A stretch of 64,000 nt of DNA, from IMG/VR virus record IMGVR_UViG_3300021405_000008. One strand, given 5' to 3'. This DNA is from a virus. Taxonomy: Duplodnaviria > Heunggongvirae > Uroviricota > Caudoviricetes. Positions 7,198 through 64,000 of the stretch are shown in pieces. Under the pieces are notes generated by a model. It was not told the origin of the DNA, ran no database searches, and saw only the letters and a program-made list of their open reading frames with translations. How positions within the stretch are numbered: position 1 is the first letter of the stretch; each line of letters begins with the position of its first letter. The position numbers and the translations under genes are program-made.

Positions 7198-7626
7198 ATG
7201 GCAAAGACCTCTGGACTTGGTGGCGCAATTATCGTGCAGGACTCGGGCTCTGTGGCTCGCACGATCACCAATGACTGCACGAACTATGCGTTCACGACGC
7301 CCCGCGCGACGCAGGATGTCACCGGTGTTGACAAGTTTGCGAATGAGACGATCCTGCTCCTCGCGGACTACACGCTGACCCTCAACGGGGTTTTCAATAC
7401 TGCTGCCAATATGTCGCACGCGGTGTTCGCGACAGTACCATCCACGACAGTAGTCCGGTCGGTCGAGATTGACCCTCTGGGAGCTACCACCGGTCAGCCG
7501 AGCCTCGTGGTAAACAATGTTTTGACTGACTACCAGATCACTCGTGCGAATACCGGCGAGCTTACCTGGCAGGTTCCAGGGCAACTCGCGGATGGTAATT
7601 CCCCTACATGGACAACGCACGCTTAA
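7198..7626 (+). CDS. major tail subunit-like protein
   Basis: 142 aa immediately upstream of chaperone pair and tape measure; RBS AGAGGG upstream. Confidence 0.5.
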   Translation: MAKTSGLGGAIIVQDSGSVARTITNDCTNYAFTTPRATQDVTGVDKFANETILLLADYTLTLNGVFNTAANMSHAVFATVPSTTVVRSVEIDPLGATTGQPSLVVNNVLTDYQITRANTGELTWQVPGQLADGNSPTWTTHA

Positions 7627-7640
7627 CCAGGGGAGTCCCG

Positions 7641-8150
7641 ATGGATATTACATCTCATCTGTCGGGACTCGCCTGCTACATCGCATATACAATCACATAC
7701 ATAATGCAAGGGATTATAATGGGATTCCGTCCGGAGAAGACTGTCTACAATCTACATTTCGAGGGCACATTCCTTGATGGGCTTAGGATCAAGGTGGGAT
7801 GCCCGACGGTCGCGGAGTTCAACGAAATGCTTCGCTGGCAGGCCGCAACAAACGTCGATGTGGCTGACAATAATGACAAAGCAACGCAGAGGTTCCTTGA
7901 CTACCTGATTGACTGGAACCTGGAAAACCCTCAGAATGGACCGATCAAGGAGGGTGAGGATACCCCTTCCATCCGAGAGGGAGAGCCGACTCCGCACACC
8001 CTGGAGGGATGTTCCGTTCACGAGCAGGTGGTGATCCGGGAAATTCTGCAGCAGTGGCAGAAGGCTATTGCGGGCGTATCCGAGGAACTGGGAAAAGGCT
8101 CGATGAATGGAAGCGATTCGCTGGAGCGATCACTCGGGATGGGCGGATAA
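7641..8150 (+). CDS. tail assembly chaperone (G-like, unshifted product)
   Basis: ATG 7641 with GGGGAG RBS; located between major tail and tape measure; contains slippery heptamer. Confidence 0.65.
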   Translation: MDITSHLSGLACYIAYTITYIMQGIIMGFRPEKTVYNLHFEGTFLDGLRIKVGCPTVAEFNEMLRWQAATNVDVADNNDKATQRFLDYLIDWNLENPQNGPIKEGEDTPSIREGEPTPHTLEGCSVHEQVVIREILQQWQKAIAGVSEELGKGSMNGSDSLERSLGMGG

Positions 8151-22395: not shown

Positions 22396-24726
22396 TTAAT
22401 CATCCGGGTCTACTACCCATATCTGTTCGGCTAGAATCGGGGTGCCGAATCCAGCAATACGGTTGCCGGAGCAAACTACCACATCATGGTCGACATTAAT
22501 CGAGTCAACGAACCTGCGAAGTTTCGGAAACACGAATCGGTTAATCCTGATGTATATTTCCTCATCGCTATTATCATAACAGCGGAGCGAGCAGTACTTG
22601 AGAAGGTCGGGCCGATACATACTAGCTAGGATATCCTCCATCTCCTCGCCAGACCTTGACCTCTGGTTCTCAGCCGCATCCTGATAGGCGCGCTCGCGAA
22701 CGATACCGGCGTATACTATGTGCGGCCCTTTCGTGAACTTGTGCTTTTTGCCGCTTCCCCTATCATCATCCATTCTGATCGCGGCTAGCATTGCCCCGTC
22801 GTGTGTTAGGCGCGGTACGCGCGCCTGGCTCTTGATCCAGGAATTGACCCTGCCTAGTCGTCGCTCGGTTAGCTTCAGCTCAAATGGGTCATCTGATGTT
22901 GCAAATGCCTGGATCTTCTCTACTGTCTTCGGGCCAATTCCGTGGATGCGCTCCATATCAGACCAATGTTTGAATGGACCATTGTCCTTCACGTCCTGCT
23001 CGATGTTCACTGAGACGATAGGGCCGATGCCCGGTATCTCGCGCCATCCTGCAATTAGTTCGCCCGTTCCATCGGCCTTGAGCCATGGAGTCCATGATCT
23101 ACGGCTGTACTTAAGTCTTGGCGGGCTGATTCGGATATCGTGTTGCATCGCATCCCGCATTAGGCGGAACCGGGCTTCCTTGTCGTCGGTCTTCGCAAGG
23201 TGCGAGGCATAGAATTCCAGCGGGTGGTGCGCTTTGAGCCACGCGCACCACAGGGCTAGTATTGCATAGCTCACGGAGTGTGCATAGACAAAGGCGTAGG
23301 TTCCGCTGGTGACTAGTCTCTTCCATATTCTGTCTGCTGTCTCTGGGCTAATACCATGGAGCCTCGCGGCCCCCTCCATGAATCGTTCCTTGTTGACGTC
23401 GAATGCCGCTTCACCCATCTTCTTCGAGATGATGCGACGGATCTCGACGGCATGTGTCCAGTCGAAGTCCCCGACATCCCGTACAGTTTGCAGGATCTGC
23501 TCCTGATAGATAATCTGACCCTTGGTGTGCTTTGTGATATTTGTTACTACGTCGTGGTATCGTTCTGGCTTTCGTCGTCCGTGTTTGACGTCAACATATT
23601 CAGCAGTTGTTCCAGAAAAGAGCGGACCTGGGCGCGAGAGCGCGTTGATATCAATGACCTCTCCAAAGTTATCAGGACTGACATCTCTATTGATGAGCCG
23701 GGTTGCTCTTCCCTCATACTGAAAGAGACCAACCACATCTCCCTGCTTGAAGACTGCGAGAGCTGATGGATCATCATCCGGGATGGCATAGAGATCCTCC
23801 AAGGTAAGCCCGATCATCTCAAGGCATTTCGCAATGACGCCCATGGTGCTTAGCCCGAGTAGGTCCATCTTCAGCATGCCGGCCGAGTCGACGTCATACT
23901 TATCGATGCTGAGGATGGAGCGGCCATCGCGGTCGTAGATCGCGCAGATATCGGTAATCGGGGTCGGGGTAACGATCAGACCGGCGGCATGTACGCTCAT
24001 CCCGCGCATGTTGCCTTCGAGACGGACCGCATTCCATAGATCAGGGTAGGTATCGAATACCTCTTTGGCAGCCGGGAAGAGTTCCACGGTGTCCACAAGA
24101 CTCGCGTCAAATCGCGAGTCGCCGCCTGATCGTTCAATAACTAGATTGCTAACTACTTCCTTGGCGTAAGACGGAACATTATAGACACGAGCCACGTCAG
24201 CCAGGCTATTCTTGCCACGATAGCGAACAAAGTTAGCGACAGTTCCCACGCAGTCAGCACCGTAACGCCGAGACATATAGTCACGCACCAAATACCGGTG
24301 CTCGTCTGAAATGTCCAGGTCAATATCCGGCGGGTCAGATCGCGTGACATCAATGAACCTTTCGAACAGTAGATTGGGGTACCGGATCGGATCAACTTCG
24401 GTAATCCTCAGCATCCAGGCCACATTACTCGCGGCTACCGAGCCGCGCCCCGGTCCCATAGGTATGCCATGTGGAGCTTCTGGCCCTCGGTAGTCCTTGG
24501 CCCAGCGTACCATGTCGCTCGTAGCAAGGAAGAAGTCTGCAAAGTCTTTCCCGAGAATTAGGCCAGATTCATACTTTGTTCGCTCACCGTACCAGTTCCT
24601 TTCGGCTACTGGTCGCTTGCCAAGCTGCCGGTAATTCCAGCCGAATCGGAGCCACTGCCAATATAGATCTTCTGATGTCATTTTACGGCCGCCTTGTTCT
24701 TTTTTGTGACCCAGCAAGTTTGGCAC
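22396..24726 (-). CDS. dnaE: DNA polymerase III alpha (DnaE-type) catalytic core, C-terminal fragment of split gene
   Basis: 776 aa; GPGRGSVAASN…, PDIDLDISDEHR palm motifs, fingers/HhH region (GIGPKTVEKI). Confidence 0.85.
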   Translation of the reverse strand: MPNLLGHKKEQGGRKMTSEDLYWQWLRFGWNYRQLGKRPVAERNWYGERTKYESGLILGKDFADFFLATSDMVRWAKDYRGPEAPHGIPMGPGRGSVAASNVAWMLRITEVDPIRYPNLLFERFIDVTRSDPPDIDLDISDEHRYLVRDYMSRRYGADCVGTVANFVRYRGKNSLADVARVYNVPSYAKEVVSNLVIERSGGDSRFDASLVDTVELFPAAKEVFDTYPDLWNAVRLEGNMRGMSVHAAGLIVTPTPITDICAIYDRDGRSILSIDKYDVDSAGMLKMDLLGLSTMGVIAKCLEMIGLTLEDLYAIPDDDPSALAVFKQGDVVGLFQYEGRATRLINRDVSPDNFGEVIDINALSRPGPLFSGTTAEYVDVKHGRRKPERYHDVVTNITKHTKGQIIYQEQILQTVRDVGDFDWTHAVEIRRIISKKMGEAAFDVNKERFMEGAARLHGISPETADRIWKRLVTSGTYAFVYAHSVSYAILALWCAWLKAHHPLEFYASHLAKTDDKEARFRLMRDAMQHDIRISPPRLKYSRRSWTPWLKADGTGELIAGWREIPGIGPIVSVNIEQDVKDNGPFKHWSDMERIHGIGPKTVEKIQAFATSDDPFELKLTERRLGRVNSWIKSQARVPRLTHDGAMLAAIRMDDDRGSGKKHKFTKGPHIVYAGIVRERAYQDAAENQRSRSGEEMEDILASMYRPDLLKYCSLRCYDNSDEEIYIRINRFVFPKLRRFVDSINVDHDVVVCSGNRIAGFGTPILAEQIWVVDPDD

Positions 24727-25097
24727 AATCCGGTCTTGCCGGTGCCCGTTATGAAATTATCACAATCACTGCATTTGGCGGAAATTCTATTTATTGCATA
24801 CAGCTCTGATATTCGACGTTTGTTCCATTTATCGGGTGCAAGTTTAATTATTGTCGGGCAAGGCCAGTAATCTACGGTGACGTGATTATGTATGCCTCGC
24901 ATTATTCTACGGTATGCTTCGGTGGCTTCTGTATCAGTTTTTATTCCATCCCTTTCCCATCTCTGTACTGTTCCTCTTGTGCATCCTATGATCATCGCGA
25001 TCCGGTACAATCTTATCCTGCAGAATGTTCGCTCTAGTCTGCGACGTTCATTCAGATCCTCTGATGTTAGTTCCTCATCAAAGTCATTGTTGCTCAT
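24678..25097 (-). CDS. small HTH / CxxC zinc-finger protein (paralog A) inside dnaE-splitting cassette
   Basis: 139 aa; ERTFCRIRLYRIAMIIGCTRGTVQRWERDG HTH; IHNHVTVDYWPCP; CSDC…CQTC. Confidence 0.5.
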   Translation of the reverse strand: MSNNDFDEELTSEDLNERRRLERTFCRIRLYRIAMIIGCTRGTVQRWERDGIKTDTEATEAYRRIMRGIHNHVTVDYWPCPTIIKLAPDKWNKRRISELYAINRISAKCSDCDNFITGTGKTGLCQTCWVTKKNKAAVK

Positions 25098-25410
25098 ACC
25101 ATCTCCGAATCGTACGCATATTCATTAGTCTGTACTTGGTCCATTTCTCGGGTGCGAGCTTAACTAGCGTAGGGCAAGGCCAGTAATCGAGTGAAGCATG
25201 ATTGTGTATAGCATGCGCTATCCTTTGGTATGATATCCTGTCTGATGTAATTGGATCGACACCGGTCTTCTCCCAGGCATATATAGACTGCCTGTGGCAC
25301 CCTATCGTTTGCGCTATCTGATGCATTTTTATGCCGCAAAATATTCGCTCTAGCCTAGCTCGCTCTCCGTCATATTTTCTTCTTGTTATCTCTAGGTATA
25401 CATACCTCAC
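25084..25410 (-). CDS. small HTH protein (paralog B), tandem duplicate of 24678-25097
   Basis: 108 aa; ERIFCGIKMHQIAQTIGCHRQSIYAWEKTG…AIHNHASLDYWPCPTLVKLAPEKW colinear with paralog A. Confidence 0.5.
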   Translation of the reverse strand: MRYVYLEITRRKYDGERARLERIFCGIKMHQIAQTIGCHRQSIYAWEKTGVDPITSDRISYQRIAHAIHNHASLDYWPCPTLVKLAPEKWTKYRLMNMRTIRRWYEQQ

Positions 25411-25751
25411 TGATCCTCCGGGATCTTATTGATCCTGTATGAAAGTCTTTGCAGCATAATTCTCTTTGTGGATTCGACATCCTTTGTGAAATGCTGTATC
25501 CCCACGATTCCGGTTATTGCAACATCGGCTAGCTCGTTGAATACATCCTCCATTTCACTGCTGAATCCCTTCCTTGGATTCTGTCCCGTGTAACCCAGGA
25601 ATGCCTCGAATGCTTCTCCTGCTTCCTCCCCTGCCTTTGCTACTCTTGCTAGATCTTGTGCTAGTGGCTGTACCTTGTATTCATTACTGGTGTTATCATC
25701 CAACCAGTCATCAATTCGTTCGATTGCAGAAAGTACGTCATTCATGTCCAT
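25407..25751 (-). CDS. MazG-like nucleotide pyrophosphohydrolase
   Basis: 114 aa; KAGEEAGEAFEAF and NELADVAITGI acidic helix motifs typical of MazG/all-alpha NTP-PPase. Confidence 0.55.
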   Translation of the reverse strand: MDMNDVLSAIERIDDWLDDNTSNEYKVQPLAQDLARVAKAGEEAGEAFEAFLGYTGQNPRKGFSSEMEDVFNELADVAITGIVGIQHFTKDVESTKRIMLQRLSYRINKIPEDQ

Positions 25752-26734
25752 GGCTGCATATCCCTTTCCGTTGCATTGTAGCGGAGACGTTCCGCTTTAG
25801 GCAAAGTCACGTTACATAGGCTGCCAACGTAGGCGCTTGCCTCGATCGCGGCCCACGCGGAGTCCCGCGATATCCCGGTGCGCTTCAGGCGATTAGCTAG
25901 TGCCTTATCTGATGATGGCAGCGTCAGCGGCACCTTGTAGTTCCATTCGCGCATGGCGTCGTCCACGCTAGCCTTACCGCGACCTACGGCATGTAGTACG
26001 GCTTGCATTTCCGCATCGGCCATCTCAGGGTAATGCACATCATGCGTAACTACTAGTGGTACATCAAATTCTCTGCTCAGCCGTTCATATGCCTTGTTCA
26101 TGGCGCAGCTACGTGGTAGTTCATAGAATGGCTGGATCTCTAGGAAGTACCTGTCTCCGAAGAGTGCTCTGAAGTTTTCAATGACTACTCCTGCTGTACC
26201 ATAGTCTGGCCTATCGATGTGCTCTGGAGTTCCCTTACCTCCAAGCAGTGCACAGGCAAGTAGACTCCCGCTGCATCCCGAAAGAACAATGATTCCTTCG
26301 GAGTTATCCGCAAGGTTGTCACCAGAGACCGTTGGATGGTAATGGTGATCGAGGTAGGACTGGGTGACGATTCTGTTGAGGCTTCGGTATCCAGCGGCAT
26401 TTTCGGCGAGGATTGTGAGGTGGTGCTTGTATTGTCCTCTCGCTGGCCGAAGGATCGTATTCCCCTGTTCATTCAGGATGAACCGTGCCTCGTCATTTTC
26501 TTCAAGAACAGATCCACAGTATGCCTCCATACCGAAGATGGGCTTTATGCCCGCTTTGATGGCTGCTTTCTCGAACTGGAAGTGAGAGCTAACATTCCCG
26601 TGCTCGGTCGCAGCTACCGCCGAGTATCCCAGCTCCACTGCACGCTGTACGTGGGAGGCTGGACTCCCATATCCATCCATAAATGAGAATGTAGTGTGAT
26701 GGTGTAGGTTAACGAAATTTACCGGCGTTTTCAT
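25742..26734 (-). CDS. dnaE: DNA polymerase III alpha PHP (N-terminal) domain, N-terminal fragment of split dnaE
   Basis: 330 aa; FVNLHHHTTFSFMDG…ATEHGNV…GMEAY classic PHP motifs; ends before palm domain. Confidence 0.85.
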   Translation of the reverse strand: MKTPVNFVNLHHHTTFSFMDGYGSPASHVQRAVELGYSAVAATEHGNVSSHFQFEKAAIKAGIKPIFGMEAYCGSVLEENDEARFILNEQGNTILRPARGQYKHHLTILAENAAGYRSLNRIVTQSYLDHHYHPTVSGDNLADNSEGIIVLSGCSGSLLACALLGGKGTPEHIDRPDYGTAGVVIENFRALFGDRYFLEIQPFYELPRSCAMNKAYERLSREFDVPLVVTHDVHYPEMADAEMQAVLHAVGRGKASVDDAMREWNYKVPLTLPSSDKALANRLKRTGISRDSAWAAIEASAYVGSLCNVTLPKAERLRYNATERDMQPWT

Positions 26735-29134: not shown

Positions 29135-29325
29135 TTCTTCTCCTCCGGCAAGTCAATGTAAGTGCGTTCGCCGCTCTTAACGCGGAGCGCATCGATAGCG
29201 TCCATTATGCGTTCTGGGGTTTCATCCCAGCGTTTCGACAGATCTCTTATTTTACTCTGCGGTTCTTTATTGTGGGCTTCATCGACCAGCTCCATGAGTT
29301 TCTCGAATGGACGACGCAGCTTCAC
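29131..29325 (-). CDS. hypothetical small protein
   Basis: 64 aa ORF. Confidence 0.3.
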   Translation of the reverse strand: MKLRRPFEKLMELVDEAHNKEPQSKIRDLSKRWDETPERIMDAIDALRVKSGERTYIDLPEEKK

Positions 29326-29951
29326 TACTTCCTCCGACTTTCAGCCTCGTGGATTAGGGCCATAAGTAGGCGGCCCTGACCGATAGCGTCGTCTACAGCG
29401 ACGTGGGGCCGTAGCCCAGATCTATCAACATTGTATTTCTTGTACAGATCACCCTCTGAAATCTTCTCATAGTATCCCGGTGTATTGAATAGCCCATTCG
29501 CGTAGCTTCGAATGTCCAGACATGCGAAGCCAAGAGGGTTTATGCCATAGAACTGATGTAGATAGTAGTTAACATGCCCGAAGTCGAAGGCGGCTGGCCA
29601 AGCTGCCGGAATTAGCTTTGCGTTGCACGTGCTCTGCATTTGGTCCAGAAGTAGACCGAATTCACCCATCACTTCATGCGGGGCTCTCTGATTTCGATTG
29701 ACCTCTAGCCATGCAGCGGGCTGAGTGTTCCACCATATCATGGTATCGTTATTTTGCATGCCATCCGGCAGAGGTTCAATTGTGCTATAGAATGTTTCGA
29801 TTTCTTTGCCATTTAGGTACATGGCCGCGCCTATTGCTAGCATGCTATTTAGACCCGGGCAAGGCCCATCGGTCTCGATGTCCAGAGATACGTAAAGCTC
29901 GGTCTTACTCATTGACATCATCGAACTGAATAGATAGCGTGGCCGGTTCAT
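29325..29951 (-). CDS. DnaQ-like 3'-5' exonuclease (DEDDh)
   Basis: 208 aa; Exo I LDIETDG, Exo II AFDFGHV, Exo III HVAVDDA. Confidence 0.75.
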   Translation of the reverse strand: MNRPRYLFSSMMSMSKTELYVSLDIETDGPCPGLNSMLAIGAAMYLNGKEIETFYSTIEPLPDGMQNNDTMIWWNTQPAAWLEVNRNQRAPHEVMGEFGLLLDQMQSTCNAKLIPAAWPAAFDFGHVNYYLHQFYGINPLGFACLDIRSYANGLFNTPGYYEKISEGDLYKKYNVDRSGLRPHVAVDDAIGQGRLLMALIHEAESRRK

Positions 29952-30198
29952 CTACCGACGGATCTGCTGGGTTGAATGACAAATCTACTGCCAATTCCCC
30001 GGTGTCCTCATCTCCGACTACTGCATCATCTGGTACATTATTCTGGCTAGCCCAATCCCTCAGATATCCCCAGGTGATCTGACTCATTGTCTGACTTACC
30101 TCTCCGAATGATTCTGACATTATCTCTTCTAGCGCTATGTCGCTCAGTTCAAATCCCGTGTCTGTCTGGCTTACATCCTCCTCGCCCCAGCTTGGCAT
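29905..30198 (-). CDS. small acidic protein
   Basis: 97 aa, Asp/Glu-rich. Confidence 0.35.
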   Translation of the reverse strand: MPSWGEEDVSQTDTGFELSDIALEEIMSESFGEVSQTMSQITWGYLRDWASQNNVPDDAVVGDEDTGELAVDLSFNPADPSVDEPATLSIQFDDVNE

Positions 30199-31394
30199 TA
30201 CTCACCCTTTACATTAATAATCTGGTGCAGGGTGTGCTCTATCTTGACTAGGTCTGCCGCATCTCGCATGACGACATCGACATCCTTGTAGGCGGCGGGG
30301 ATTTCATCGATGAACTTGTCTGAGTGCCTCCACTCGATACCCTGCATTGCCTCTTCTAGGTCCGCGAAGCTGAATGCACGCTCTGCTGCCTTCCGCCCAT
30401 ACTGACGGCCTGCGCCGTGCGGTGATGAGTTCAGGGATAGCGTGTTGCCGAGTCCCGAGACAACGTAGGATGCCGTCCCCATGGATCCAGGGATAAGCCC
30501 CATACGGCCCTCACTGGCGTCGATCGCGCCCTTCCGCGAAAGCCATACATGTCCCTCTATATCTGCCGATGGCCTGAAGCGCCGCAGTAGATCTTCGGTC
30601 ATCGGCTCGGTGTAATTGTGATGGCACTGGATGCGCTCAGATACGTACCAGTCGTCTATCTCCTGAGTTATGCACCCAAGGACACGGTCCATCATCTCTT
30701 CGCGGTTCATACGCGCGAACTCCTGCGCCCAAAAGAGGCAGCGCAGGTAGTCCCTGAACTCTGGCGTGCCTTCGACAAGATATGCGAGGTCGGAATCAGG
30801 TAGCGTCACCCAATTGTACTTGCAGTATGCTTGGGCAATTGCGATGGACTTCATTGCTAGCTTATTGCCGACGCCTCGGCTGCCGCTGTGCAGGAATGCC
30901 CATACCCGGTCTTCCTCATCTACTGAGACTTCGATGAAGTGGTTGCCCGAGCCGAGCGATCCAAGCTGCATATCCCAGTCGGCTATCTGAGTGGCGTCCT
31001 CGGCCCCATCCATCTTTGCCAGGATATTGACCCGGTGTTCGGTCCTCCGGTCCCATAGTTTCTGATTGTACTTACCTACTGACAGCGGTATGGCTCGCTC
31101 GATCCGCTCCCGGATTCGCCGCCTGAGATCAGGGTCTTCTAGCTGTTCCGCGTATAGGCTTGTGCGGTGCGCGATCATGCCGCAGCCGATATCGACTCCC
31201 ACAGCTGCCGGCATAATTGCGCCAATTGTCGGGATGACTGATCCCACCGTCGCGCCTTTGCCCCAGTGAGCATCAGGCATAATTGCAACATGCGGAAAGA
31301 TGAATGGCATAGAGGCAGTATTAAGCGCCTGCTGCTTCGCGCCATCTTCGAGGATTGATGCCCAGCTGAACAAGCGATTGTCTATCTTCTCCAT
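30198..31394 (-). CDS. rtcB: RtcB-family RNA ligase
   Basis: 398 aa; MPDAHWGKGATVGSV, GVDIGCGM, GSGNHFIE, HNY, SPHGAGR motifs. Confidence 0.85.
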   Translation of the reverse strand: MEKIDNRLFSWASILEDGAKQQALNTASMPFIFPHVAIMPDAHWGKGATVGSVIPTIGAIMPAAVGVDIGCGMIAHRTSLYAEQLEDPDLRRRIRERIERAIPLSVGKYNQKLWDRRTEHRVNILAKMDGAEDATQIADWDMQLGSLGSGNHFIEVSVDEEDRVWAFLHSGSRGVGNKLAMKSIAIAQAYCKYNWVTLPDSDLAYLVEGTPEFRDYLRCLFWAQEFARMNREEMMDRVLGCITQEIDDWYVSERIQCHHNYTEPMTEDLLRRFRPSADIEGHVWLSRKGAIDASEGRMGLIPGSMGTASYVVSGLGNTLSLNSSPHGAGRQYGRKAAERAFSFADLEEAMQGIEWRHSDKFIDEIPAAYKDVDVVMRDAADLVKIEHTLHQIINVKGE

Positions 31395-31477
31395 TATTGT
31401 CCGTCCAAATTCAGGCCCGGTGTGGCCCGGTTACTCCGCAGTGGCCGAGCCACACCGGGGGCTTGTGTGTTGCTCTG

Positions 31478-42540: not shown

Positions 42541-42552
42541 ACTTATGTGGGG

Positions 42553-42591
42553 TGAGCAGGGACGGAATTGAACCGTCATCCCATGCTGCTC
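42553..42591 (-). ncRNA. tRNA-like T-arm/acceptor minihelix (unresolved tRNA-like element)
   Basis: GACGG-TTCAATT-CCGTC T-arm followed by CCTGCTC-A; only 5' partner GAGCAGC lies 8 nt before T-stem; no D/anticodon arms found. Confidence 0.25.
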
Positions 42592-42777
42592 TCTACCCAC
42601 CCCTGGGCGCCCGCAGCAACTTTAGGGAGGATGCTGCTTGCCACACTATCCCGTGTGGCAGGGCGGACTCCACTACGCCCACAGCACCCTCCGGTCCGGG
42701 GAGCGTACGGGCAGCAAGATGCCCGGCGGATACTCCAGCAGGGACAAAGCCCGTCGAGCAATACCCGTACGCTCCGG

Positions 42778-42849
42778 TGGGGAGAGCAGGATTTGAACCC
42801 ACACTCTTGGCTTCGGAAGCCAAAGCTCTATCCATTGAGCTACCTCCCC
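42778..42849 (-). tRNA. tRNA-Arg (anticodon CCG)
   Basis: Cloverleaf: GGGGAGG acceptor, GCTC/GAGC D-stem, TTGGC-TTCCGAA-GCCAA anticodon arm, TTCAAAT T-loop. Confidence 0.8.
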
Positions 42850-43236: not shown

Positions 43237-43362
43237 ACCTCCTCTGTGACATTTTCTGATGGCCGGGAGTACCCCTGGAGAACTACTCCCGGCCAACACT
43301 GTCCTCGCGGATACAGCATCTCTACCCGACCGCGCAGCGTCCTGCGCCGAGCCCAGAGATCG

Positions 43363-43437
43363 TAGCGGGGGCCAGATTTGAACTGGCGTGTATGCAGATT
43401 ATGAGTCTGCTGAGCGACCATACTGCTCGACCCCGCC
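43363..43437 (-). tRNA. tRNA-Met (anticodon CAT; elongator-type or Ile-lysidine possible)
   Basis: GGCGGGG acceptor, GAGC/GCTC D-stem, GCAGA-CTCATAA-TCTGC anticodon arm, GCCAG-TTCAAAT-CTGGC T-arm, discriminator A. Confidence 0.8.
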
Positions 43438-43969: not shown

Positions 43970-44385
43970 GAGTGATTTCTCCTCCAGTGCCGACGGTAGG
44001 CAGACTTAGTTCGAAAGCGCGAGGGGGCATGATTGCTGCCAGGGACCTCGCAGTTGTGGATCTGTACGTTTTTGCCGTGCCTCTCCTCTGTCCTCCACTG
44101 ACAGTAGTAGAACGTTCCGCCACGCTTTGGCTCAGGAACATACGATATGCCGAATAGCTCCGTGATCTGCCTTCGATTTAGCTCAACTTTGGCAGAGAAG
44201 TCATCAATGGCTATCATGACCTGCGCGTAGCCATTATCAGGCATAGTTGTTATCCAGAATGAATTTGACCCAGTCAGATGGCTCAGTGTTGGTATTGATG
44301 GCATACCTCGGGTATGCGCACGGAGCTTTCTGATACGCGAAGACTGCGGACGAGGAGCAGACGACGTGCCCGGATATTTCCCCAT
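43966..44385 (-). CDS. hypothetical protein with Cys/His cluster
   Basis: 139 aa; YYCQW…HNC…H…H. Confidence 0.3.
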   Translation of the reverse strand: MGKYPGTSSAPRPQSSRIRKLRAHTRGMPSIPTLSHLTGSNSFWITTMPDNGYAQVMIAIDDFSAKVELNRRQITELFGISYVPEPKRGGTFYYCQWRTEERHGKNVQIHNCEVPGSNHAPSRFRTKSAYRRHWRRNHS

Positions 44386-44812
44386 TAGTATCCTTCACCG
44401 ACCACGGGTCTGGTATTGCCGGAAGGTGCAAGTCGCGGAGATCATCGCCGACGATCGCATCCCAGTCATACTTGGTGTTGATCAGGCGATTCATCCAGTA
44501 GCAGATCTCGGTGCGCTGCTCGTCGGTCTTCGGCTGATGGCGGTTCGTGACGGTGTACTGGCTCATGAGGTAGCCGGTCGCGTCCCGCCATCCTACGCCG
44601 CCTGGGCGGCCCTCCAGGCACCACCAGGTGCTCTTGGCATCGATGTGGTCGAGGACCGCAATGTGGTTGTCAAGTCCGGGCTCGCCTAGCAGCGTCGAGC
44701 CAAAGTTGATCACTTCGGCTGCTAGTCCGCTGGTGCGAACACAGAGTACATCTCCGGCTTGCACCCCGACGGTATTGTCAGGAAGCTTGAGGGCAGTTGT
44801 AGTGCTGGTCAT
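44237..44812 (-). CDS. hypothetical protein, possible Cys-peptidase-like domain
   Basis: 191 aa; translationally coupled (ATGA) to upstream PT-rich membrane protein. Confidence 0.35.
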   Translation of the reverse strand: MTSTTTALKLPDNTVGVQAGDVLCVRTSGLAAEVINFGSTLLGEPGLDNHIAVLDHIDAKSTWWCLEGRPGGVGWRDATGYLMSQYTVTNRHQPKTDEQRTEICYWMNRLINTKYDWDAIVGDDLRDLHLPAIPDPWSVKDTNGEISGHVVCSSSAVFAYQKAPCAYPRYAINTNTEPSDWVKFILDNNYA

Positions 44813-45489
44813 GAAGGCGATCCCGATGGTGCGGTTGAAGTGGGGGCGATAGTCGTCAGAGTGGGGGTTGGAGTAGCTGTAGTAGGGGTGTCAGTCGGAC
44901 TGGTAGGAGGGGTTGATACTGGGCTGGTGGGAGGCGTTGTCGTAGGCGGCGCTGACGTTGGGCTACTGTGCGTCGGGGGAGCGGTCGTCGGCGCGGCCGA
45001 GGTAGGCGGCGGGGACGTAGGACGGCGCGTAGGCGGCGTGGTCGTCGGTGCCCGGGTAGGGACGGCCGACGCGGACGGCGCGGCGCTTACCGTCCGGCTA
45101 GGCGTCGCAGAGATTTTACTGGTGGCTGTGGTCGTCGGGGTAGAAGTGGGCGCTGTCGTATCCAGGAAGACGTTGCTCGGCAGTTTCTTCGGCGCAGGCT
45201 TAGCAGCAGGTGTGATTGCGATGCGTTTGGATGGAGTTGCCGTTGGATCTATGAATGCCTCCACGGGGCTAGATACCTGTCCCTTGCTGCTGACGGTCGG
45301 GGTCGTCGGAGTGCTCGATGGGTTGCTCTCGAACCTGGCCACCCCGATGTACCCCGCCGTCGCAACTGTGCCTACCCCGACGATAAACAGGATGAGAATC
45401 GTCGCGTTCCGGTACGGCCATCTCAGTTTCTTCTTCTGCTTTACGATCGGAATCCCGACCGTATCATCATGCCCTATATTTCTTGTCAC
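44809..45489 (-). CDS. membrane-anchored Pro/Thr/Ser-rich protein
   Basis: 226 aa; N-terminal TM ILILFIVGVGTVATAGYIGV then about 150 aa PT/S-rich low complexity. Confidence 0.45.
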   Translation of the reverse strand: MTRNIGHDDTVGIPIVKQKKKLRWPYRNATILILFIVGVGTVATAGYIGVARFESNPSSTPTTPTVSSKGQVSSPVEAFIDPTATPSKRIAITPAAKPAPKKLPSNVFLDTTAPTSTPTTTATSKISATPSRTVSAAPSASAVPTRAPTTTPPTRRPTSPPPTSAAPTTAPPTHSSPTSAPPTTTPPTSPVSTPPTSPTDTPTTATPTPTLTTIAPTSTAPSGSPS

Positions 45490-45695
45490 AGCAGTCCCTC
45501 CTCTGGGATTGTATGCCGATTATCACTTATGGTCTTTCGGCTTGTGTCCGCAAACGCCGCATTTCCTCTTCGGAATAAGGAATGACCCGGTCATTATGCT
45601 ACTAGCAAGTCTCGCTGTACCTACGGTAGCATTGCCTGCTGCACTTCCACAGCATCTCTTGCAGTTTGAGCAACCAGTCAGAACTCGTCTCATGG

Positions 45696-46727
45696 CTAGC
45701 TCCAGCAGTGCACGTAGTCGATGACCATCTTGGCTGATGGGAGCAGAGACGGGTTCGGGTTAACGCTGTTCGTACCGGTGCCGTTGGTCGCGATGTTGAG
45801 CAGACAGTACGAGCCACCGTTGTTGTCGAACGGCCACGGCGTAAGATTGGACGGCGTGGCGGATGCATACAGGGTATTGTCAATGAACAGTTGTACCGAA
45901 CCCTTTGCCCAGTCCAGGCGATAGGTATGGAACCCGCCGTCCATCTGGTTACTAGCGCGGCCACCCTGGCTAGCGGTAGCGATGCCGTTCCAGATTGTGC
46001 CCTCGGTGAAACCGGTACCGTAGTTCTCCATGACGTCGATCTCGCCGCAGCCCGGCCAGGAGCCTTCACCGAGCAGCCAGAACGCAGGCCAGCATCCCGG
46101 CACATTCGGTACCGCAATGGATGCCTCCCAGTGTCCGAACTGCTGGTGGAAGTTGCTCTTAATCCTCGCGCTGTTGAACCCGCCGCCGTCGGCCGGGGTG
46201 ACAGCAATAACGAGGTGCCCGTTGCCGTCGAGATAAGAGTTGGCAGTTGACTTGACGTAGTTCTCGGTCTCATTGTTTCCGCCGATAGAGGCCCCAGAAC
46301 CGACATCCCAAAGCCAGTTGGTCGCGCTGGGCAGTGTGCCCGCAGGGCCGTTGAACTCATCGGCAAAGGTGTACGTCGGAGGAGGTGTAACCACCACGGG
46401 CGGCGGGGTAGTCGCCGGGGGCTGGTGTGCGAAAGCTGGCTGCCCCCAACTACAAACCGGGGCCGTAGTTGCCGTGTGCTCGCCTACTGCGTTTCGAGTC
46501 CTCATTGATATCTCCGCATCTGATCCGGCCACTATTAGACCGGCAGCCGATATGCCGATTGTTGCCAGGAACCTCCTGCGGTCCCTGATTCTTACCTGCT
46601 GCGCCTCAGAAACTTCGGCCGAGGTAGGCCCCCGATCGCTGAACAGAATGCGATCGCGGTATTTATGTAGAGGAAGATGTATGCGCCATTTATTACGTCG
46701 TGGGCTGTCAATTGGATTCACCTCCAT
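45696..46727 (-). CDS. secreted glycoside hydrolase family 16 (beta-glucanase/laminarinase-like) with Tat signal
   Basis: 343 aa; DRRRFLATIGISAAGLIVAGS twin-arginine signal; GH16 catalytic GEIDVMENYG. Confidence 0.75.
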   Translation of the reverse strand: MEVNPIDSPRRNKWRIHLPLHKYRDRILFSDRGPTSAEVSEAQQVRIRDRRRFLATIGISAAGLIVAGSDAEISMRTRNAVGEHTATTAPVCSWGQPAFAHQPPATTPPPVVVTPPPTYTFADEFNGPAGTLPSATNWLWDVGSGASIGGNNETENYVKSTANSYLDGNGHLVIAVTPADGGGFNSARIKSNFHQQFGHWEASIAVPNVPGCWPAFWLLGEGSWPGCGEIDVMENYGTGFTEGTIWNGIATASQGGRASNQMDGGFHTYRLDWAKGSVQLFIDNTLYASATPSNLTPWPFDNNGGSYCLLNIATNGTGTNSVNPNPSLLPSAKMVIDYVHCWS

Positions 46728-47812
46728 GCCCAGGACTGTGACAACAAGTAGCCATTAATGGCAGACTTGAAGTCGGACAGTGTATCGAGTGCGTGAATTT
46801 CATAGCGGAACCGCTCGTTGCGAATGCCATTCCGCGTCGGGTCTTGGACGAATGCCGCGTGGAACGTGGTGGCGGCGTAGGAAACTAGCCATCCGCTTGG
46901 CCCGTCGTAACTCTCGTATGCTGTGCAGGTCTTCGGACAGGTATAGCCCAGGTCGGAGTATGGCACGACCCAGGCATCCCCGTTGAAACGACTGCCCAGC
47001 TCCGAGGTCAGCTCGGCAATGCCATCTGACATCTCCGACTTGACCCGGATAGTGTATGCTGCGTCGCTCTCGCCAGGTAGCTTACAGGCATTGAAGGCGA
47101 AGCAGTTCTTGTCATAGTCTTGCTGGTAATGCCCGTCCTGCCCAGCCTCGATACTAAACGAGTAGACGCTTGGACTTAGGGCCTTGAGCTGTGGCCATGT
47201 CAGATCCCATCCAATGTCGCCCTTTGGGCACTCCGGCTGGACATTTACCCCGCTGATCTTTGGGCCGCATTTGCCATTCGCGCCATCCGCGAACCCGGTC
47301 ACGAGGAATGCGACGGCTGTGAAACGGTAGTGGTAGAGGATCGGCTGTGCTCCCTCTAGGAAGTCACCGATGCCATTGTCTACCGTGATGAAGAATGGCT
47401 TCGTGGGTAGCTTGTACTGCTTGTTTGCTAGCCAAGCGAGGTACTGACTCATTGTCACTGTGTGGTAGCCCTGATCGTACATCCAGGCCATCTCGGCCGT
47501 GAACTGGGATGTACTCACGCTCTCATAGTCATGTGATTGGCAGATCGGAGCAGATGCCGCACAGTCATTATCCATCTCGTGATATACTAGGACCGGGACC
47601 TGCGATGCGGTGGCTACCGGAACCTTATGGCCGGCTACCTGCTTGACGCTCGCCAGGGTTGATGCCGGGGCGGTTGCCGATGATGATTCTGTATTGCTAG
47701 ATCCATACGTGAGCACCACGGTGTGTATCACCAGCATAGAGCCAGCGATTATGACTACTAGAATGGTGGAGAAGATGCCTATCATCATGTAACGGCGGCG
47801 ACGGAAGCTCAT
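46718..47812 (-). CDS. membrane-anchored polysaccharide deacetylase (CE4/NodB-like)
   Basis: Start at MSFRRRRYMM (ATGA coupling to upstream stop); TM; PVLVYHEM…FITVDNG NodB-homology-like motifs. Confidence 0.6.
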   Translation of the reverse strand: MSFRRRRYMMIGIFSTILVVIIAGSMLVIHTVVLTYGSSNTESSSATAPASTLASVKQVAGHKVPVATASQVPVLVYHEMDNDCAASAPICQSHDYESVSTSQFTAEMAWMYDQGYHTVTMSQYLAWLANKQYKLPTKPFFITVDNGIGDFLEGAQPILYHYRFTAVAFLVTGFADGANGKCGPKISGVNVQPECPKGDIGWDLTWPQLKALSPSVYSFSIEAGQDGHYQQDYDKNCFAFNACKLPGESDAAYTIRVKSEMSDGIAELTSELGSRFNGDAWVVPYSDLGYTCPKTCTAYESYDGPSGWLVSYAATTFHAAFVQDPTRNGIRNERFRYEIHALDTLSDFKSAINGYLLSQSWAWR

Positions 47813-49050
47813 GAGTCGATACCCACCTTCATCGCTTCGGCCTGCATGCCCTCGGCTTTGTACTGCGGGGCCCATAGATCGCCCATAGATGCACTTAGCA
47901 CCTTGTACCAGCTCACTACGCCCCAGGCGATAGCAATCAGGTTATAGATGATCATGTGCACGAGGAGGACCGCTAGCAGGGTATCTTTCCAGTCGCGCGC
48001 CCAGTCGTGTCCTCGGATGCGTCGGACATGGATGAATTCCACTAGCATGAGGAATCCCGTCAGTAGCTGCCACTTCCAGTTGAAGCGCCCGGGGTCGACG
48101 ATTGCCTCGGTACCGTTCAGGGCAGTCCATATCATCCAGAAGCTGATGTTCATGAACAGGAATCCGCGCTGTAGCCACTCGCGGTAGTTCAGGCGATTGC
48201 ACCCGAATCGAAGCAAGTCACCGCATGTGCCGGCTTCCCACTTGATACGCTGATACCAGAGTGACTTCCATGTCTTCATGCTACCGGTGTAGCAGAAGAC
48301 CGTTTCCGACATCCAGCATTTCCAGCCCTTCTGCCGGAGTCGGTATGTGAGGTGGTAGTCCTCGACTACGCTTTCGTAAGTCCAGGGGCCTTCCTGGTTC
48401 GGACGGGCGGCCACTGCTTGTAGAGCGATATTCCGGAACGCGCATCCAGTACCAGATATCACCCGGCACCAGCCACGGCTTAGGGTCTGTGTTGCGCTCT
48501 TTGCGAACTCGTACCTTTGCAGCCTAGGCAGGTAGCCCTTGCCCGTCATGATTGGCTGACTCGATGACCCTCCAAGTTGGGGATCATTAGCGAACTCCGC
48601 TTCCCAGTCGGCTACCGCGTGCGGAGGCATCGTAGTATCACCATCAGCGCAGATGATGATGTCGGCGGTCTGGCAGTACTTGTTCCATGCCATGTTTAGT
48701 GCGCCGGACTTGCGGTGGGTGTTGCCTTCCGTTTCGATCACCCGGACACCGTACAGATTGGCGATTACTACAGTCCAGTCCGTAGAGTTATCCGAGATAA
48801 CGATAATGTCATCCAGTCTTCTAGTCTGATCTAGAAGAGACTGAATTGTATTGCCGATGTCCTCTTGCTCATTGTGGGCCGGGATGAGAGCTACAATCCT
48901 CGGCGATAGCTTGTGTGGCACGGTATTTGCCAGCATAGATTCTAGATCGCTGCGGGTGGTAATGTCGCAGGCTGAAACTGCTCTGGCTGGATTGGCATGG
49001 TTGGTAGTCCTTGCCCTCATCCAGGAAAACTCATCGTTGCTTGGAGTCAC
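47809..49050 (-). CDS. processive family-2 glycosyltransferase (PgaC/NodC/cellulose-synthase-like)
   Basis: 413 aa; IPAHNEQEDI, ICADGDT (D,D,D), QRIKW (Q-x-x-R-W) motifs; multiple C-terminal TM helices. Confidence 0.75.
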   Translation of the reverse strand: MTPSNDEFSWMRARTTNHANPARAVSACDITTRSDLESMLANTVPHKLSPRIVALIPAHNEQEDIGNTIQSLLDQTRRLDDIIVISDNSTDWTVVIANLYGVRVIETEGNTHRKSGALNMAWNKYCQTADIIICADGDTTMPPHAVADWEAEFANDPQLGGSSSQPIMTGKGYLPRLQRYEFAKSATQTLSRGWCRVISGTGCAFRNIALQAVAARPNQEGPWTYESVVEDYHLTYRLRQKGWKCWMSETVFCYTGSMKTWKSLWYQRIKWEAGTCGDLLRFGCNRLNYREWLQRGFLFMNISFWMIWTALNGTEAIVDPGRFNWKWQLLTGFLMLVEFIHVRRIRGHDWARDWKDTLLAVLLVHMIIYNLIAIAWGVVSWYKVLSASMGDLWAPQYKAEGMQAEAMKVGIDS

Positions 49051-49254
49051 TTGGTTTCCCTTTGGTTATCGGCTATTTAGTCAGCCGAAGATAGTAGATC
49101 TTGACCTTCTCTGGTTCTATCTCGATCTCGCAAATATTGATATCCTCAAACGGCTGCGGCTGCGGCGCTTGCTTGCCGCTTATATACCAGCGCCATTCGA
49201 CACTAATCATAGCCAAACTCTAGGATTGAGTGGGTCAGGCTCATTCCTGACATA

Positions 49255-49300
49255 GCACTCGGCTCGTGCCCGGGCGGGGTCACGAGCCGAGTGGCTTTTG
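49255..49300 (+). terminator. strong hairpin with T-run (terminator-like, + orientation)
   Basis: 13-bp perfect stem CACTCGGCTCGTG/CACGAGCCGAGTG then GCTTTTGT. Confidence 0.4.
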
Positions 49301-49591
49301 TCCGCTCGGCCCGTCCGAGCAACGGGCCGAGCAGAACCAGCCCCGCAATCGGTACTGCCCGAAGCTATGCCTTTGCCGTCCCAGAGGAGGAGATTCGACA
49401 TTGGCTAGACTCTCCGTTCAGTCCGTTCGCGGGGCTGGTCTTTCCACCTCCCCTGATGCTCTGGACCCCAGCGTCACGACACGCTAGTTGCACCAGGGAA
49501 GCTTTGGCGGGACTCCTGAACTACGGGGTATCCAGGAGTCCCTGTCACTTTACCTGCCGAGGTGGGGCAGCAGGCAAAGCGGTCTAGCGGT

Positions 49592-49762
49592 TTAGTAGGG
49601 AGCTGCACCCTTCTTGCGGGTGACCGGGCGACCCCCGGCGGGCTTCGCAGTCGCAGCTGTGGCCTTGGCGGTAGCAGCCTTGGCGGCAGCCGGCCTAGCC
49701 TTGGTGGCGACCTTAGCGACTGGCGCAGCAGCCTTGGCCTTGGCAACCGGCTTGGCCGACGC
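49592..49762 (-). pseudogene. in-frame 57-codon Lys/Ala-rich continuation downstream of TAG (readthrough extension or recently truncated tail)
   Basis: Same frame stays open to TAA 49592-49594: ASAKPVAKAAAPVAKVATKARPAAAKAATAKATAATAKPAGGRPVTRKKGAAPY. Confidence 0.35.
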
Positions 49763-49789
49763 CTAGGCAACCGGCTTGGCCGACGCCTT
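49742..49789. repeat. perfect 24-bp tandem duplication differing at one base (Lys AAG vs stop TAG on - strand)
   Basis: ggcaaccggcttggccgacgcct(a/t) x2. Confidence 0.8.
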
Positions 49790-50296
49790 GGCGGCGGGCT
49801 TGGCCTTAGGCGCAGCAGCCTTGGCGGCCTTGGCCGCCGCAGCCTCGGCCTGACGCTCGGACCGGCGCTCCTTGTTGAAGGCCGATCGCTGGAACTCCAT
49901 GCGGGCAGTACCAGCGATGGCGACTAGGCGAACCGGGTCATCCGCGCCAACCTCAGCGATGGAAGTACCAGTGGGCTCGAAGATGGCGAAGTCCATCCAT
50001 GCAGCAAAGTCCTGCATGACGGGTGTGATGGGCTTGGATGCGTACGGGGTGTAGTCGGGGGTGTCGTCGTCTTCGTCATCCTCGTCGTCGTCATCCTCCT
50101 CTTCATCCTCGTCCTCATCCTCCTCCTCTTCATCCTCCTCTTCATCGTCCAGCTCGTCGTCCTCGTCTTCCAGTTCCTCGTCGTCTTCGTCTTCCAGTTC
50201 CTCGTCCTCCAGCTCCAGGTCGTCGTCGACCTCTTCTGGTTCCTCGACTGGCGCAGACTTGGCTTTGGACTTGGACGTGGCAGTGCGGGTGGCCAT
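49763..50296 (-). CDS. highly acidic protein (about 60-residue poly-Asp/Glu block) with Lys/Ala-rich C-terminus; alternative start 50686
   Basis: ATG 50296 preceded by GAAGGAGAAGG RBS; EEPEEVDDDLELEDEELEDEDDEELEDEDDELDDEEEDEEEEDEDEDEEEDDDDEDDEDDD; ends AKPVAKASAKPVA at TAG. Confidence 0.5.
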   Translation of the reverse strand: MATRTATSKSKAKSAPVEEPEEVDDDLELEDEELEDEDDEELEDEDDELDDEEEDEEEEDEDEDEEEDDDDEDDEDDDTPDYTPYASKPITPVMQDFAAWMDFAIFEPTGTSIAEVGADDPVRLVAIAGTARMEFQRSAFNKERRSERQAEAAAAKAAKAAAPKAKPAAKASAKPVA

Positions 50297-58797: not shown

Positions 58798-59099
58798 GCC
58801 TTCCTAATTGCACTCGGGTGAATTTCTGGATCGGGTTCCCCGGTGAACAACCACTCTGTTGTCTCGCCGGACAGCTGAACATTCTCGCCAGTCACGCTCC
58901 GAGTTTCATGGTTGCCCGAGTTTTCCGATTCCATTTTTCTCCATTTTGAAATTCTAGCGGGAGGCAGTTTTGAACTATATCCGACTAACCCTATCGGGAA
59001 TAACGGATACATAATGCCTCCGCTTATGAATGTAACCCAGCATATTAGCGCTACCCCTGTGGCCAGAAGTATCGTGAGTGTTACCAATCTAATGTTCAT
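58773..59099 (-). CDS. small membrane protein
   Basis: 108 aa; N-terminal TM helices. Confidence 0.35.
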   Translation of the reverse strand: MNIRLVTLTILLATGVALICWVTFISGGIMYPLFPIGLVGYSSKLPPARISKWRKMESENSGNHETRSVTGENVQLSGETTEWLFTGEPDPEIHPSAIRKAWDRLWRR

Positions 59100-63580: not shown

Positions 63581-64000
63581 ATGTACCTTCGGAATTGTAT
63601 GCAGACCATACCGGTCTTGCCAGTGTTGATGTAGAATCCGTTGACCGTGCGCCAGGATGTATGGCCCTTTAGCACGGGGCCTCCATTCTTATTGGCGTGC
63701 AGAATACCCATTCCCCTGAATGACCGGACTCTCTTGTACCTGTCGACTTTCATTCTAGCGGCTCGCTAGCAGGCACGGTTCGGCCGAAGCCGTCACCGAC
63801 TAGTTCATAAGCTGTCACTATGTTCTCGATGCCCTTCCGCATGAGATCCTCGGCTATATAACGCTGCCTCCCCATAATGGTGTCGACTCTACGGATTCGA
63901 TGTAGAAGTTGGGATGGTCGGTCTTGTAATGTATGCCGGCCATAAATGCACTATTTGCGAGAGTAGGTGCATCTACTCCATAGACAGGGATTTCACTGAT

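Follow-up and report, generated by a model that had tools for sequence, protein, structure and literature searches.

The 64,000-nucleotide stretch analysed here (the window) belongs to an uncultivated tailed phage of the Caudoviricetes (IMG/VR record IMGVR_UViG_3300021405_000008) and carries on its minus strand what is, judged by sequence, a genuine full-length rtcB gene, encoding a 3'-phosphate/5'-hydroxyl RNA ligase of the RtcB family (30198..31394; 398 amino acids from an ATG start). Two tRNA genes lie on the same strand, and an original prediction made from the DNA letters had joined the ligase and the tRNAs into a kit for surviving host anticodon nucleases. We find that the enzyme and the tRNA genes stand and that their association is loose and recurrent, not a module. 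For the ligase itself, we give about even chances to a role in resealing translation RNAs cut by host ribonucleases, with the tRNA genes making a parallel and separate contribution.

The phage RtcB and its relatives

The identification rests on an end-to-end match to the Pfam RtcB profile PF01139 (E=1.7e-107, 360.8 bits against a cut-off of 27), in which residues 22-397 span profile positions 1-426 of 426, the full-length match that marks members of the family. PHROG 1075, annotated 'tRNA splicing ligase', matches the product with E=3.8e-132, and solved RtcB structures are matched from P. horikoshii (1uc2, E=1.4e-29), human (7p3b, E=6.8e-23) and Thermus (E within 1e-29 to 7e-23). The gene is preceded by a ribosome-binding-like stretch, GGACGGA, 8 nt upstream of its ATG.

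Alignment with the P. horikoshii and human enzymes places the active-site residues at D41/H43 in MPDAHWG, D68/C71 in GVDIGCG, N151/H152 in GSGNHF, H169 in LHSGSRG and H259 in CHHNY. D41, D68, C71, H152, H169 and H259 align with the P. horikoshii metal ligands D65, D95, C98, H203, H234 and H329, and H326, in SSPHGAGR, aligns with STCHGAGR and with P. horikoshii H404 of the HGAGR motif, the histidine that carries guanosine monophosphate (GMP). All of D41, H43, D68, C71, N151, H152, H169, H259 and H326 are invariant in an alignment of 20 relatives that are 54-79% identical. The original prediction had called the gene from its metal-binding and GMP-histidine motifs, had proposed the PF01139 search as a check and had named the absence of conserved His/Cys ligands as the finding that would overturn it; the ligands are in place throughout, and the call holds.

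Scores against the named RtcB subfamilies of NCBIfam fall below their curated cut-offs (PRK09588 equivalog 144.5 against 407; TIGR03073 117.2 against 271.8; intein-containing RtcB 332.9 against 1050), and the phage protein is therefore placed in none of these subgroups; it contains no intein. Enzymes of the family join RNA ends bearing a 2',3'-cyclic phosphate or 3'-phosphate to 5'-hydroxyl ends and need guanosine triphosphate (GTP) and Mn2+ to do so.

RtcB homologues were found by tblastn in 659 of 50,697 phage records. The best matches among isolated phages are to actinophages and reach 52-55% identity, namely the Mycobacterium phages Omnicron, Rando14 and DS6A, Corynebacterium phage Bran, Gordonia phage Cucurbita and Rhodococcus phage Trogglehumper. 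The genes annotated 'RtcB-like RNA ligase' in these phages (Omnicron gp82, Rando14 gp80, DS6A gp76, Bran gp67, Cucurbita gp74) resemble the window gene in family, in length (~390-405 amino acids), in aligning over 98-99% of the protein and in standing among non-structural genes. They differ in their neighbouring genes, and the window phage has no DNA-level match among deposited phages by megablast. Its closer RtcB relatives (70-78% identity) occur only in metagenomes: a large protein collection holds thousands of relatives of ~400 amino acids, the closest of them on metagenomic contigs of which at least two are phage-like. The enzyme is a new sequence, and the kind to which it belongs is very well populated.

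The nearest cellular RtcBs are 57-64% identical and nearly all come from Actinomycetota (reference genomes, more than 581 loci), with carriers including Microbacterium, Nocardioides, Saccharothrix, Arthrobacter and Streptosporangiaceae. By sequence affinity, the window RtcB is of the actinobacterial type, and the host is therefore most likely an actinobacterium. Cellular RtcBs of actinobacteria and of Escherichia coli, where the gene belongs to the rtcBA operon (Tanaka & Shuman 2011), have the fold and catalytic residues in common with the window enzyme. Unlike in that operon, no RtcA cyclase or RtcR regulator was found near the window gene among the Pfam matches listed; the gene is phage-borne and presumably expressed with the phage programme instead of being induced by damage.

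Loose association of rtcB with tRNA genes

The window contains exactly two tRNA genes by ARAGORN, both on the minus strand and both without an encoded CCA. One is a tRNA-Arg with anticodon CCG (42776..42849; Rfam RF00005, 65.1 bits against a gathering threshold of 29), and the other has anticodon CAT (43362..43437; 53.1 bits with permissive filters, against the same threshold). The original prediction had named both, and ARAGORN and Rfam agree that they are real. It had also put them 11-12 kb from rtcB in the same leftward module; the distance (11.4-12.0 kb) and the strand are right, although the genes lie upstream of rtcB in the direction of transcription and not downstream. The anticodon of the tRNA described as 'Met-CAT' is likewise correct, although the tRNA could equally well be a lysidine-type tRNA-Ile2 as an elongator tRNA-Met. 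It is not an initiator, as shown by its G1.U72 pair and by the single G-C pair that adjoins the anticodon loop. ARAGORN was also run with relaxed settings to look for a transfer-messenger RNA and for tRNAs whose maturation would call for a ligase (intron-containing, split or permuted); it gave low-quality pseudo-tRNA calls only and no transfer-messenger RNA.

We extended the view 10 kb past each end of the window by means of near-identical contigs (99.99-100% identity in the overlaps), so that 84 kb were examined in all. No additional tRNA gene, for which the original prediction had suggested looking outside the window, was found within 10 kb past either end.

Some 25 unrelated genes separate rtcB from the tRNAs. 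Among relatives, proximity is mixed. Corynebacterium phage Bran and two viral contigs (L012 and L013) have a tRNA 0.5-2.9 kb after rtcB. In Omnicron and Cucurbita none occurs within 4 kb of the gene, and the two long phage contigs with the closest RtcBs, L018 (71%) and L020 (70%), have none within 10 kb. At cellular actinobacterial loci, a tRNA occurs within 6 kb of rtcB in 9 of 60. In the literature, Rhodococcus phages of cluster CB carry 11-15 tRNAs next to two RNA ligases, and phages of cluster CR encode RtcB and no tRNA (PMC13313380). Because proximity varies in this way among relatives, including phages that have RtcB and lack tRNAs, the association of rtcB with tRNA genes is loose and recurrent, and not a module.

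Individual cellular loci show closer arrangements. In a metagenome-assembled genome of an uncultured member of Actinomycetota, ten tRNA genes including Arg-CCG begin less than 200 nt after rtcB (L042, 7358-8349), and at four other loci (L051, L054, L059 and L068) rtcB is preceded, at a distance of 40-600 nt, by one tRNA (Met-CAT, Arg-ACG or Tyr). Such adjacency could reflect a functional link or simply tRNA-adjacent islands.

The linkage and co-conservation that mark a T4-type system against anticodon nucleases are not seen here, given the separation of the genes, their unconserved neighbours and the relatives without a nearby tRNA. A further mark of such a system, a phage ligase able to seal the nuclease products, is provided by the intact RtcB, whose chemistry, by established enzymology, suits cyclic-phosphate and 5'-hydroxyl ends. 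Of the kit originally proposed, then, the enzyme, the phage setting and the chemistry of cyclic-phosphate and 5'-hydroxyl ends remain, and the linkage does not.

It would be a stronger claim that RtcB mainly repairs the phage's own tRNA-Arg(CCG) and tRNA-CAT and that the three genes act as one functional unit, and we regard this as improbable. All three genes do lie on the same strand of one phage, and the relatives with a tRNA shortly after rtcB point the same way. Furthermore, the rtc operon of E. coli is induced by both colicin D and VapC-LT2, whose targets are tRNA-Arg and tRNA-fMet (PMC7790460), a suggestive coincidence with the Arg and CAT tRNAs of the phage. The intervening distance and genes, the closest relatives and the cluster CR phages argue otherwise, as does the tRNA-CAT in not being an initiator. 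In addition, a sister phage represented by two contigs (L009 and L017, 99.2% identical to each other) keeps the tRNA-CAT but has a tRNA-Ile(GAT) in place of the tRNA-Arg(CCG), so the arginine identity is not fixed.

The general idea has precedents. The T4 enzymes Pnkp and Rnl1, acting on tRNA-Lys cut by PrrC, follow the same proposed logic of a phage ligase undoing the work of a host anticodon nuclease (PMC10264068). They differ in that the T4 enzyme is unrelated, whereas the window RtcB would join 3'-phosphate or cyclic-phosphate ends to 5'-hydroxyl ends with GTP, Pnkp being neither needed nor found. Closer still are the Rhodococcus cluster CB phages and jumbo phages, which have the same trio of tRNAs, RtcB and an adenosine triphosphate (ATP)-dependent RNA ligase as the window phage, read as countering host tRNA turnover (PMC13313380, PMC7824862). 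In those phages the elements are adjacent and the tRNAs number 11-15 or more, against two tRNAs in at least 84 kb examined here and elements scattered at ~12 kb and ~39 kb from rtcB. The tRNAs of jumbo phages have been described as being 'supplemented by' ligases of the RtcB-like and ATP-grasp types, which rejoin cleaved tRNAs (PMC7824862), and phage tRNAs have been proposed to act against VapC, PrrC and colicin D/E5 (PMC10264068). The use of RtcB and phage tRNAs against host tRNA cleavage is therefore already published as a hypothesis (PMC7824862, PMC13313380) and is not new.

The pairing of RtcB with tRNAs is thus ordinary and already described, and its significance as it stands is little; nor does an uncultivated phage with an unassigned host ease an experimental test of a phage RtcB. 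What the present analysis adds is mostly negative or clarifying, namely that rtcB and the tRNAs form no conserved module and that no end-healing partners are found in the region examined. It also adds a second ligase of probably complementary chemistry and the placement of the RtcB in an actinobacterial clade.

Proposed resealing of host-cut RNA and other possible roles

In the role to which we give roughly even odds, the phage RtcB would reseal RNAs of the translation apparatus after cuts made by host ribonucleases. His326 would be guanylylated in the presence of Mn2+ and GTP, and the GMP would then pass to the 3'-phosphate of an RNA, any 2',3'-cyclic phosphate having first been opened; attack by the 5'-hydroxyl of the other fragment would restore the phosphodiester. 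Sealing of this kind would require no separate kinase or phosphatase. We infer that the substrates would chiefly be tRNA anticodon loops and possibly rRNA, encoded by host or phage, and that the cutters would be metal-independent host ribonucleases active during infection, with anticodon nucleases, HEPN or MazF-type toxins and colicin-D/E5-like domains as candidates. The two phage tRNA genes would help translation in parallel, by replacing depleted tRNAs or supplying codons, and would not be dedicated substrates. The product of a second, ATP-dependent RNA-ligase-like gene could take the complementary breaks with 3'-hydroxyl and 5'-phosphate ends.

The search for repair partners combined Pfam on 84 minus-strand open reading frames (the top 25 of 43 matched families), targeted Pfam scans and Pfam labels precomputed for the genes in the flanks. 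Neither the window's Pfam matches listed nor the targeted scans include a Pnkp, RtcA, Hen1, archease, 2H phosphoesterase or Ro/TROVE protein, and RtcA, RtcR, Ro, Pnkp, archease and Hen1 are not among the precomputed labels of the 10-kb flanks. Pnkp in particular, which the original prediction had suggested looking for beyond the window, is absent within 10 kb past either end. Since RtcB needs no end-healing enzyme, finding none is consistent with the resealing role. The Rfam matches in the window are the two tRNAs only and include no Y RNA; with no RtcA, RtcR or TROVE gene among the Pfam matches and labels listed, a Ro/Y-RNA context and an rtcBA-type operon were both rejected.

The second ligase candidate is encoded ~6.7-7.5 kb past window position 64000, on a contig that overlaps the window at 99.99% identity (L003:2080-2880; minus strand, the same as rtcB; 266 amino acids). 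It matches PF09414 RNA_ligase (30.5 bits, cut-off 27) and PHROG 548 ('RNA ligase') and has the motif I sequence EKVDG; two HNH endonuclease genes precede it, and it has no sequence match in the PDB. The product is 42% identical to gp136 of Streptomyces phage JustBecause (AYD81305.1), which adjoins a Ro-like protein and a tRNA cluster and has been listed as a divergent actinophage RNA ligase (Iyer et al., PMC7824862). On this evidence, the phage probably has two ligases of complementary chemistry, one for GTP and 3'-phosphate ends and one for ATP and 5'-phosphate ends, and the second could handle 3'-hydroxyl/5'-phosphate breaks.

This distinction bears on the nucleases that the original prediction had listed as sources of RtcB substrates. 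PrrC, RloC, colicin D/E5 and MazF leave 2',3'-cyclic phosphate or 3'-phosphate ends together with 5'-hydroxyl ends, and the listing of PrrC, RloC and colicin-like enzymes fits RtcB chemistry well. VapC is a doubtful member of the list. PIN-domain VapC enzymes are metal-dependent and generally expected to leave 5'-phosphate and 3'-hydroxyl ends, which would therefore be a job for the ATP-dependent ligase and not for RtcB.

Several points weigh against the resealing of host-cut RNAs as the role of the enzyme. The literature search yielded no experimental study of a phage RtcB, and with a metagenomic origin and an unassigned host, no anticodon nuclease can be named. The gene has no conserved neighbours in common with Omnicron, Bran or Cucurbita, where the adjoining genes are unrelated, and the closest relatives have no tRNA within the 10 kb around rtcB. 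Many likely hosts have an rtcB of their own, and the phage copy may therefore be redundant or a recent host-derived passenger. Finally, ~23 kb of contig beyond the 84 kb examined could hold other relevant genes.

The passenger reading belongs to a broader view in which the gene has no part in defence. The enzyme would then be a host-derived accessory for general RNA housekeeping, or would mature phage RNAs, for example by joining or circularising tRNA-like RNAs, or would mend the damage from a phage-encoded shut-off RNase. Three things speak for this view: the window enzyme is closer to the RtcBs of actinobacterial cells (57-64% identity) than to those of isolated actinophages (52-55%), rtcB moves among unrelated neighbourhoods, and the phage contains unexplained conserved tRNA-like RNAs (described below). 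Yet the catalytic residues are invariant across many phage lineages (the 659 records and the thousands of metagenomic relatives), which argues for a selected function, and ARAGORN found no intron-containing, split or permuted tRNA to mature. We consider the absence of any defence role unlikely, if still worth reckoning with.

Ribosomes rather than tRNAs could also be the target, with RtcB resealing rRNA that colicin-E3-like or MazF-like ribotoxins have cut, for example in the 16S 3' region, in the manner of the bacterial PrfH-RtcB2 and MazF-RtcB systems. A passage of PMC5408214 cites RtcB as reversing MazF cleavage of 16S rRNA, and PrfH-RtcB mends damaged ribosomes (PMC9304027). In the 71%-identical relative on the phage-like contig JAFMOA010003231.1 (L018), an RF-1-domain gene with a GGQ motif (113 amino acids, ArfB/PrfH-like; 7619-7960) lies 2 kb before rtcB, which hints at a link to ribosome rescue in some phages. 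The window phage has RtcB in common with the PrfH-RtcB2 rescue and repair pair, and its enzyme matches the release-factor-associated RtcB model TIGR03073 weakly (117 bits), far under the cut-off of 271.8. It differs in that phmmer found no RF-1/PrfH-like protein in the window or its 10-kb flanks. For this phage, ribosome repair as the main role therefore seems rather doubtful.

A further alternative is that RtcB seals or guanylyl-caps 3'-phosphate ends of phage DNA during replication or repair. The E. coli enzyme can act on DNA 3'-phosphate ends in vitro, and the window gene stands among replication genes (DnaE, DEDDh exonuclease, ThyX, PD-(D/E)XK nuclease). Nothing specific to the rtcB locus points to DNA, however, and the established cellular substrates of the family are RNAs, so that we hold this role to be very unlikely indeed.

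The tRNA locus, the neighbouring genes and the phage genome

The sister phage, whose 120-amino-acid protein at this locus is 62-63% identical to that of the window, has the same layout: tRNA-CAT is followed by the 120-amino-acid gene, then by a second tRNA and a structured non-coding stretch, and lastly by a small gene with a product that starts MIIQIPVV. Its homologue of tRNA-CAT on L017 is 86% identical and has a different anticodon stem that is still fully paired. At the position of tRNA-Arg it has the tRNA-Ile(GAT), which reads common Ile codons (L017 2741-2815; L009 957-1031). This tRNA and tRNA-Arg(CCG) agree at 44 of 49 positions in the acceptor, D and T arms and differ in the anticodon arm, in the variable loop and on the 5' side of the T stem, the window tRNA-Arg being left with two G.U pairs in its T stem. 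In sequence, this looks like the exchange of an internal segment that switched tRNA identity between the two phages.

Codon usage bears on what the tRNAs might do. The phage uses ATA at 13.2 per thousand, and an ATA reader would therefore be useful to it. CGG makes up only 19% of its Arg codons, and AGA and AGG, at 27%, have no phage tRNA, so that codon supply is no obvious explanation of tRNA-Arg(CCG). Replacement of depleted tRNAs is favoured over codon supply for the phage tRNAs, although the indication is suggestive only. A ~64-nt non-coding stretch after tRNA-CAT (43288-43351, minus strand) is 89% identical to L017 1981-2044, compared with ~67% for adjacent coding DNA, and is followed in the window by a strong hairpin (GGCCGGGAGUA...UACUCCCGGCC).

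Directly after tRNA-Arg lies a putative non-coding, structured, tRNA-like RNA of ~230 nt (42545..42775, minus strand; L009 1032-1262 and L017 2816-3046 in the sister phage), recognized from its sequence and predicted fold. It folds into three tRNA-sized domains. The first is a long hairpin closed by GGAG...CUCC, with a stem sequence wholly different between the window phage and its sister. The second is a three-way junction with a D-arm-like hairpin and one compensatory change from G-C to A-U, and its second hairpin is wholly different in sequence in the sister phage with pairing kept. The third is an 11-bp helix in which three changes are compatible with wobble pairing; it encloses a perfect T-arm (GACGG UUCAAUU CCGUC). 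Rfam has no family that matches this RNA; scans of viral contigs for the exact pattern and of metagenomes from a protein anchor, made with no covariance model, found it in only one sister lineage. The evidence that the architecture is conserved with compensation is suggestive and comes from two lineages only.

The tRNA-like RNAs could represent either tRNA genes in decay or functional mimics of tRNA. As they bear a D-arm-like hairpin and a perfect T-arm and have no anticodon, they could act as decoys, and one might read the whole tRNA locus as a counter-defence cassette in which a constant tRNA scaffold with an exchanged anticodon arm and tRNA-like decoys or sponges for host tRNA nucleases would work alongside two ligases that reseal the cuts. 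We regard this reading as a long shot. The tRNA-like RNAs and the anticodon-arm exchange are nonetheless the parts that might repay further work.

Around rtcB itself, a 97-amino-acid acidic open reading frame follows (29905..30198, minus strand), its ATG overlapping the rtcB stop (TAATG). It has no Pfam or PHROG match and resembles none of the genes that follow rtcB in Omnicron and Cucurbita. Two genes after rtcB is a predicted DEDDh 3'-5' exonuclease (29325..29951, minus strand; PF16473, E=1.3e-6, 28.7 bits against a cut-off of 27; PHROG 192, 'DNA polymerase exonuclease subunit', E=5e-11). It may be an Rv2179c-like exoribonuclease or a DnaQ-like proofreading subunit, and its tie to rtcB is uncertain. 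As no homologue of it follows rtcB in Omnicron or Cucurbita, where the genes after rtcB are unrelated, a conserved three-gene module of rtcB, small frame and exonuclease was rejected. On the other side, the 83-nt gap between an SPFH/Band-7 gene and rtcB contains a hairpin (31417-31458, minus strand) whose 22-nt loop is closed by a perfect 10-bp stem (CCGGUGUGGC/GCCACACCGG) and which, because it lacks a U-tract, may be a processing or regulatory element.

The window belongs to a ~107-kb phage contig of metagenomic origin (ENA ERZ27253566) that carries the exact RtcB protein, and near-identical Logan contigs exist as well. Capsid and prohead-protease genes lie just before the window start on a flanking contig, and very long tail-type open reading frames occupy the plus strand over 1-19 kb of the window. 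From 19.4 kb on, all genes run leftward, and rtcB stands within this long block of replication and nucleotide-metabolism genes. The block includes a two-gene DnaE-type polymerase, the DEDDh exonuclease, a methyltransferase, rtcB, the SPFH/Band-7 protein, ThyX and an AAA_24 ATPase, together with a PD-(D/E)XK nuclease, an SNF2 helicase, a primase-polymerase, ParB and sugar-modifying enzymes. A scan for promoters and terminators was uninformative, its counts not exceeding those obtained with shuffled sequence.

The DnaE core is 47% identical to the DnaE of Mycobacterium phage PBI1 and its relatives. The polymerase is split (22396-26734, minus strand) into a PHP-domain gene (25742-26734) and the polymerase core (22396-24726), with three small open reading frames of 114, 108 and 139 amino acids between them, one of which has a weak helix-turn-helix match. 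Besides ThyX and an FAD-binding protein, the phage encodes glycosyltransferase family 2, GH16 and NAD-dependent epimerase/dehydratase (Polysacc_synt_2) domains. Of these, only the epimerase is assigned to a particular frame (59096-60463, minus strand). At 44-46 kb the GC content climbs to 57-58% and the GC skew becomes positive. These features, noted for ~44000-50000 and 59096-60463 on the minus strand, may reflect functions in DNA or cell-envelope modification, or an acquired block.

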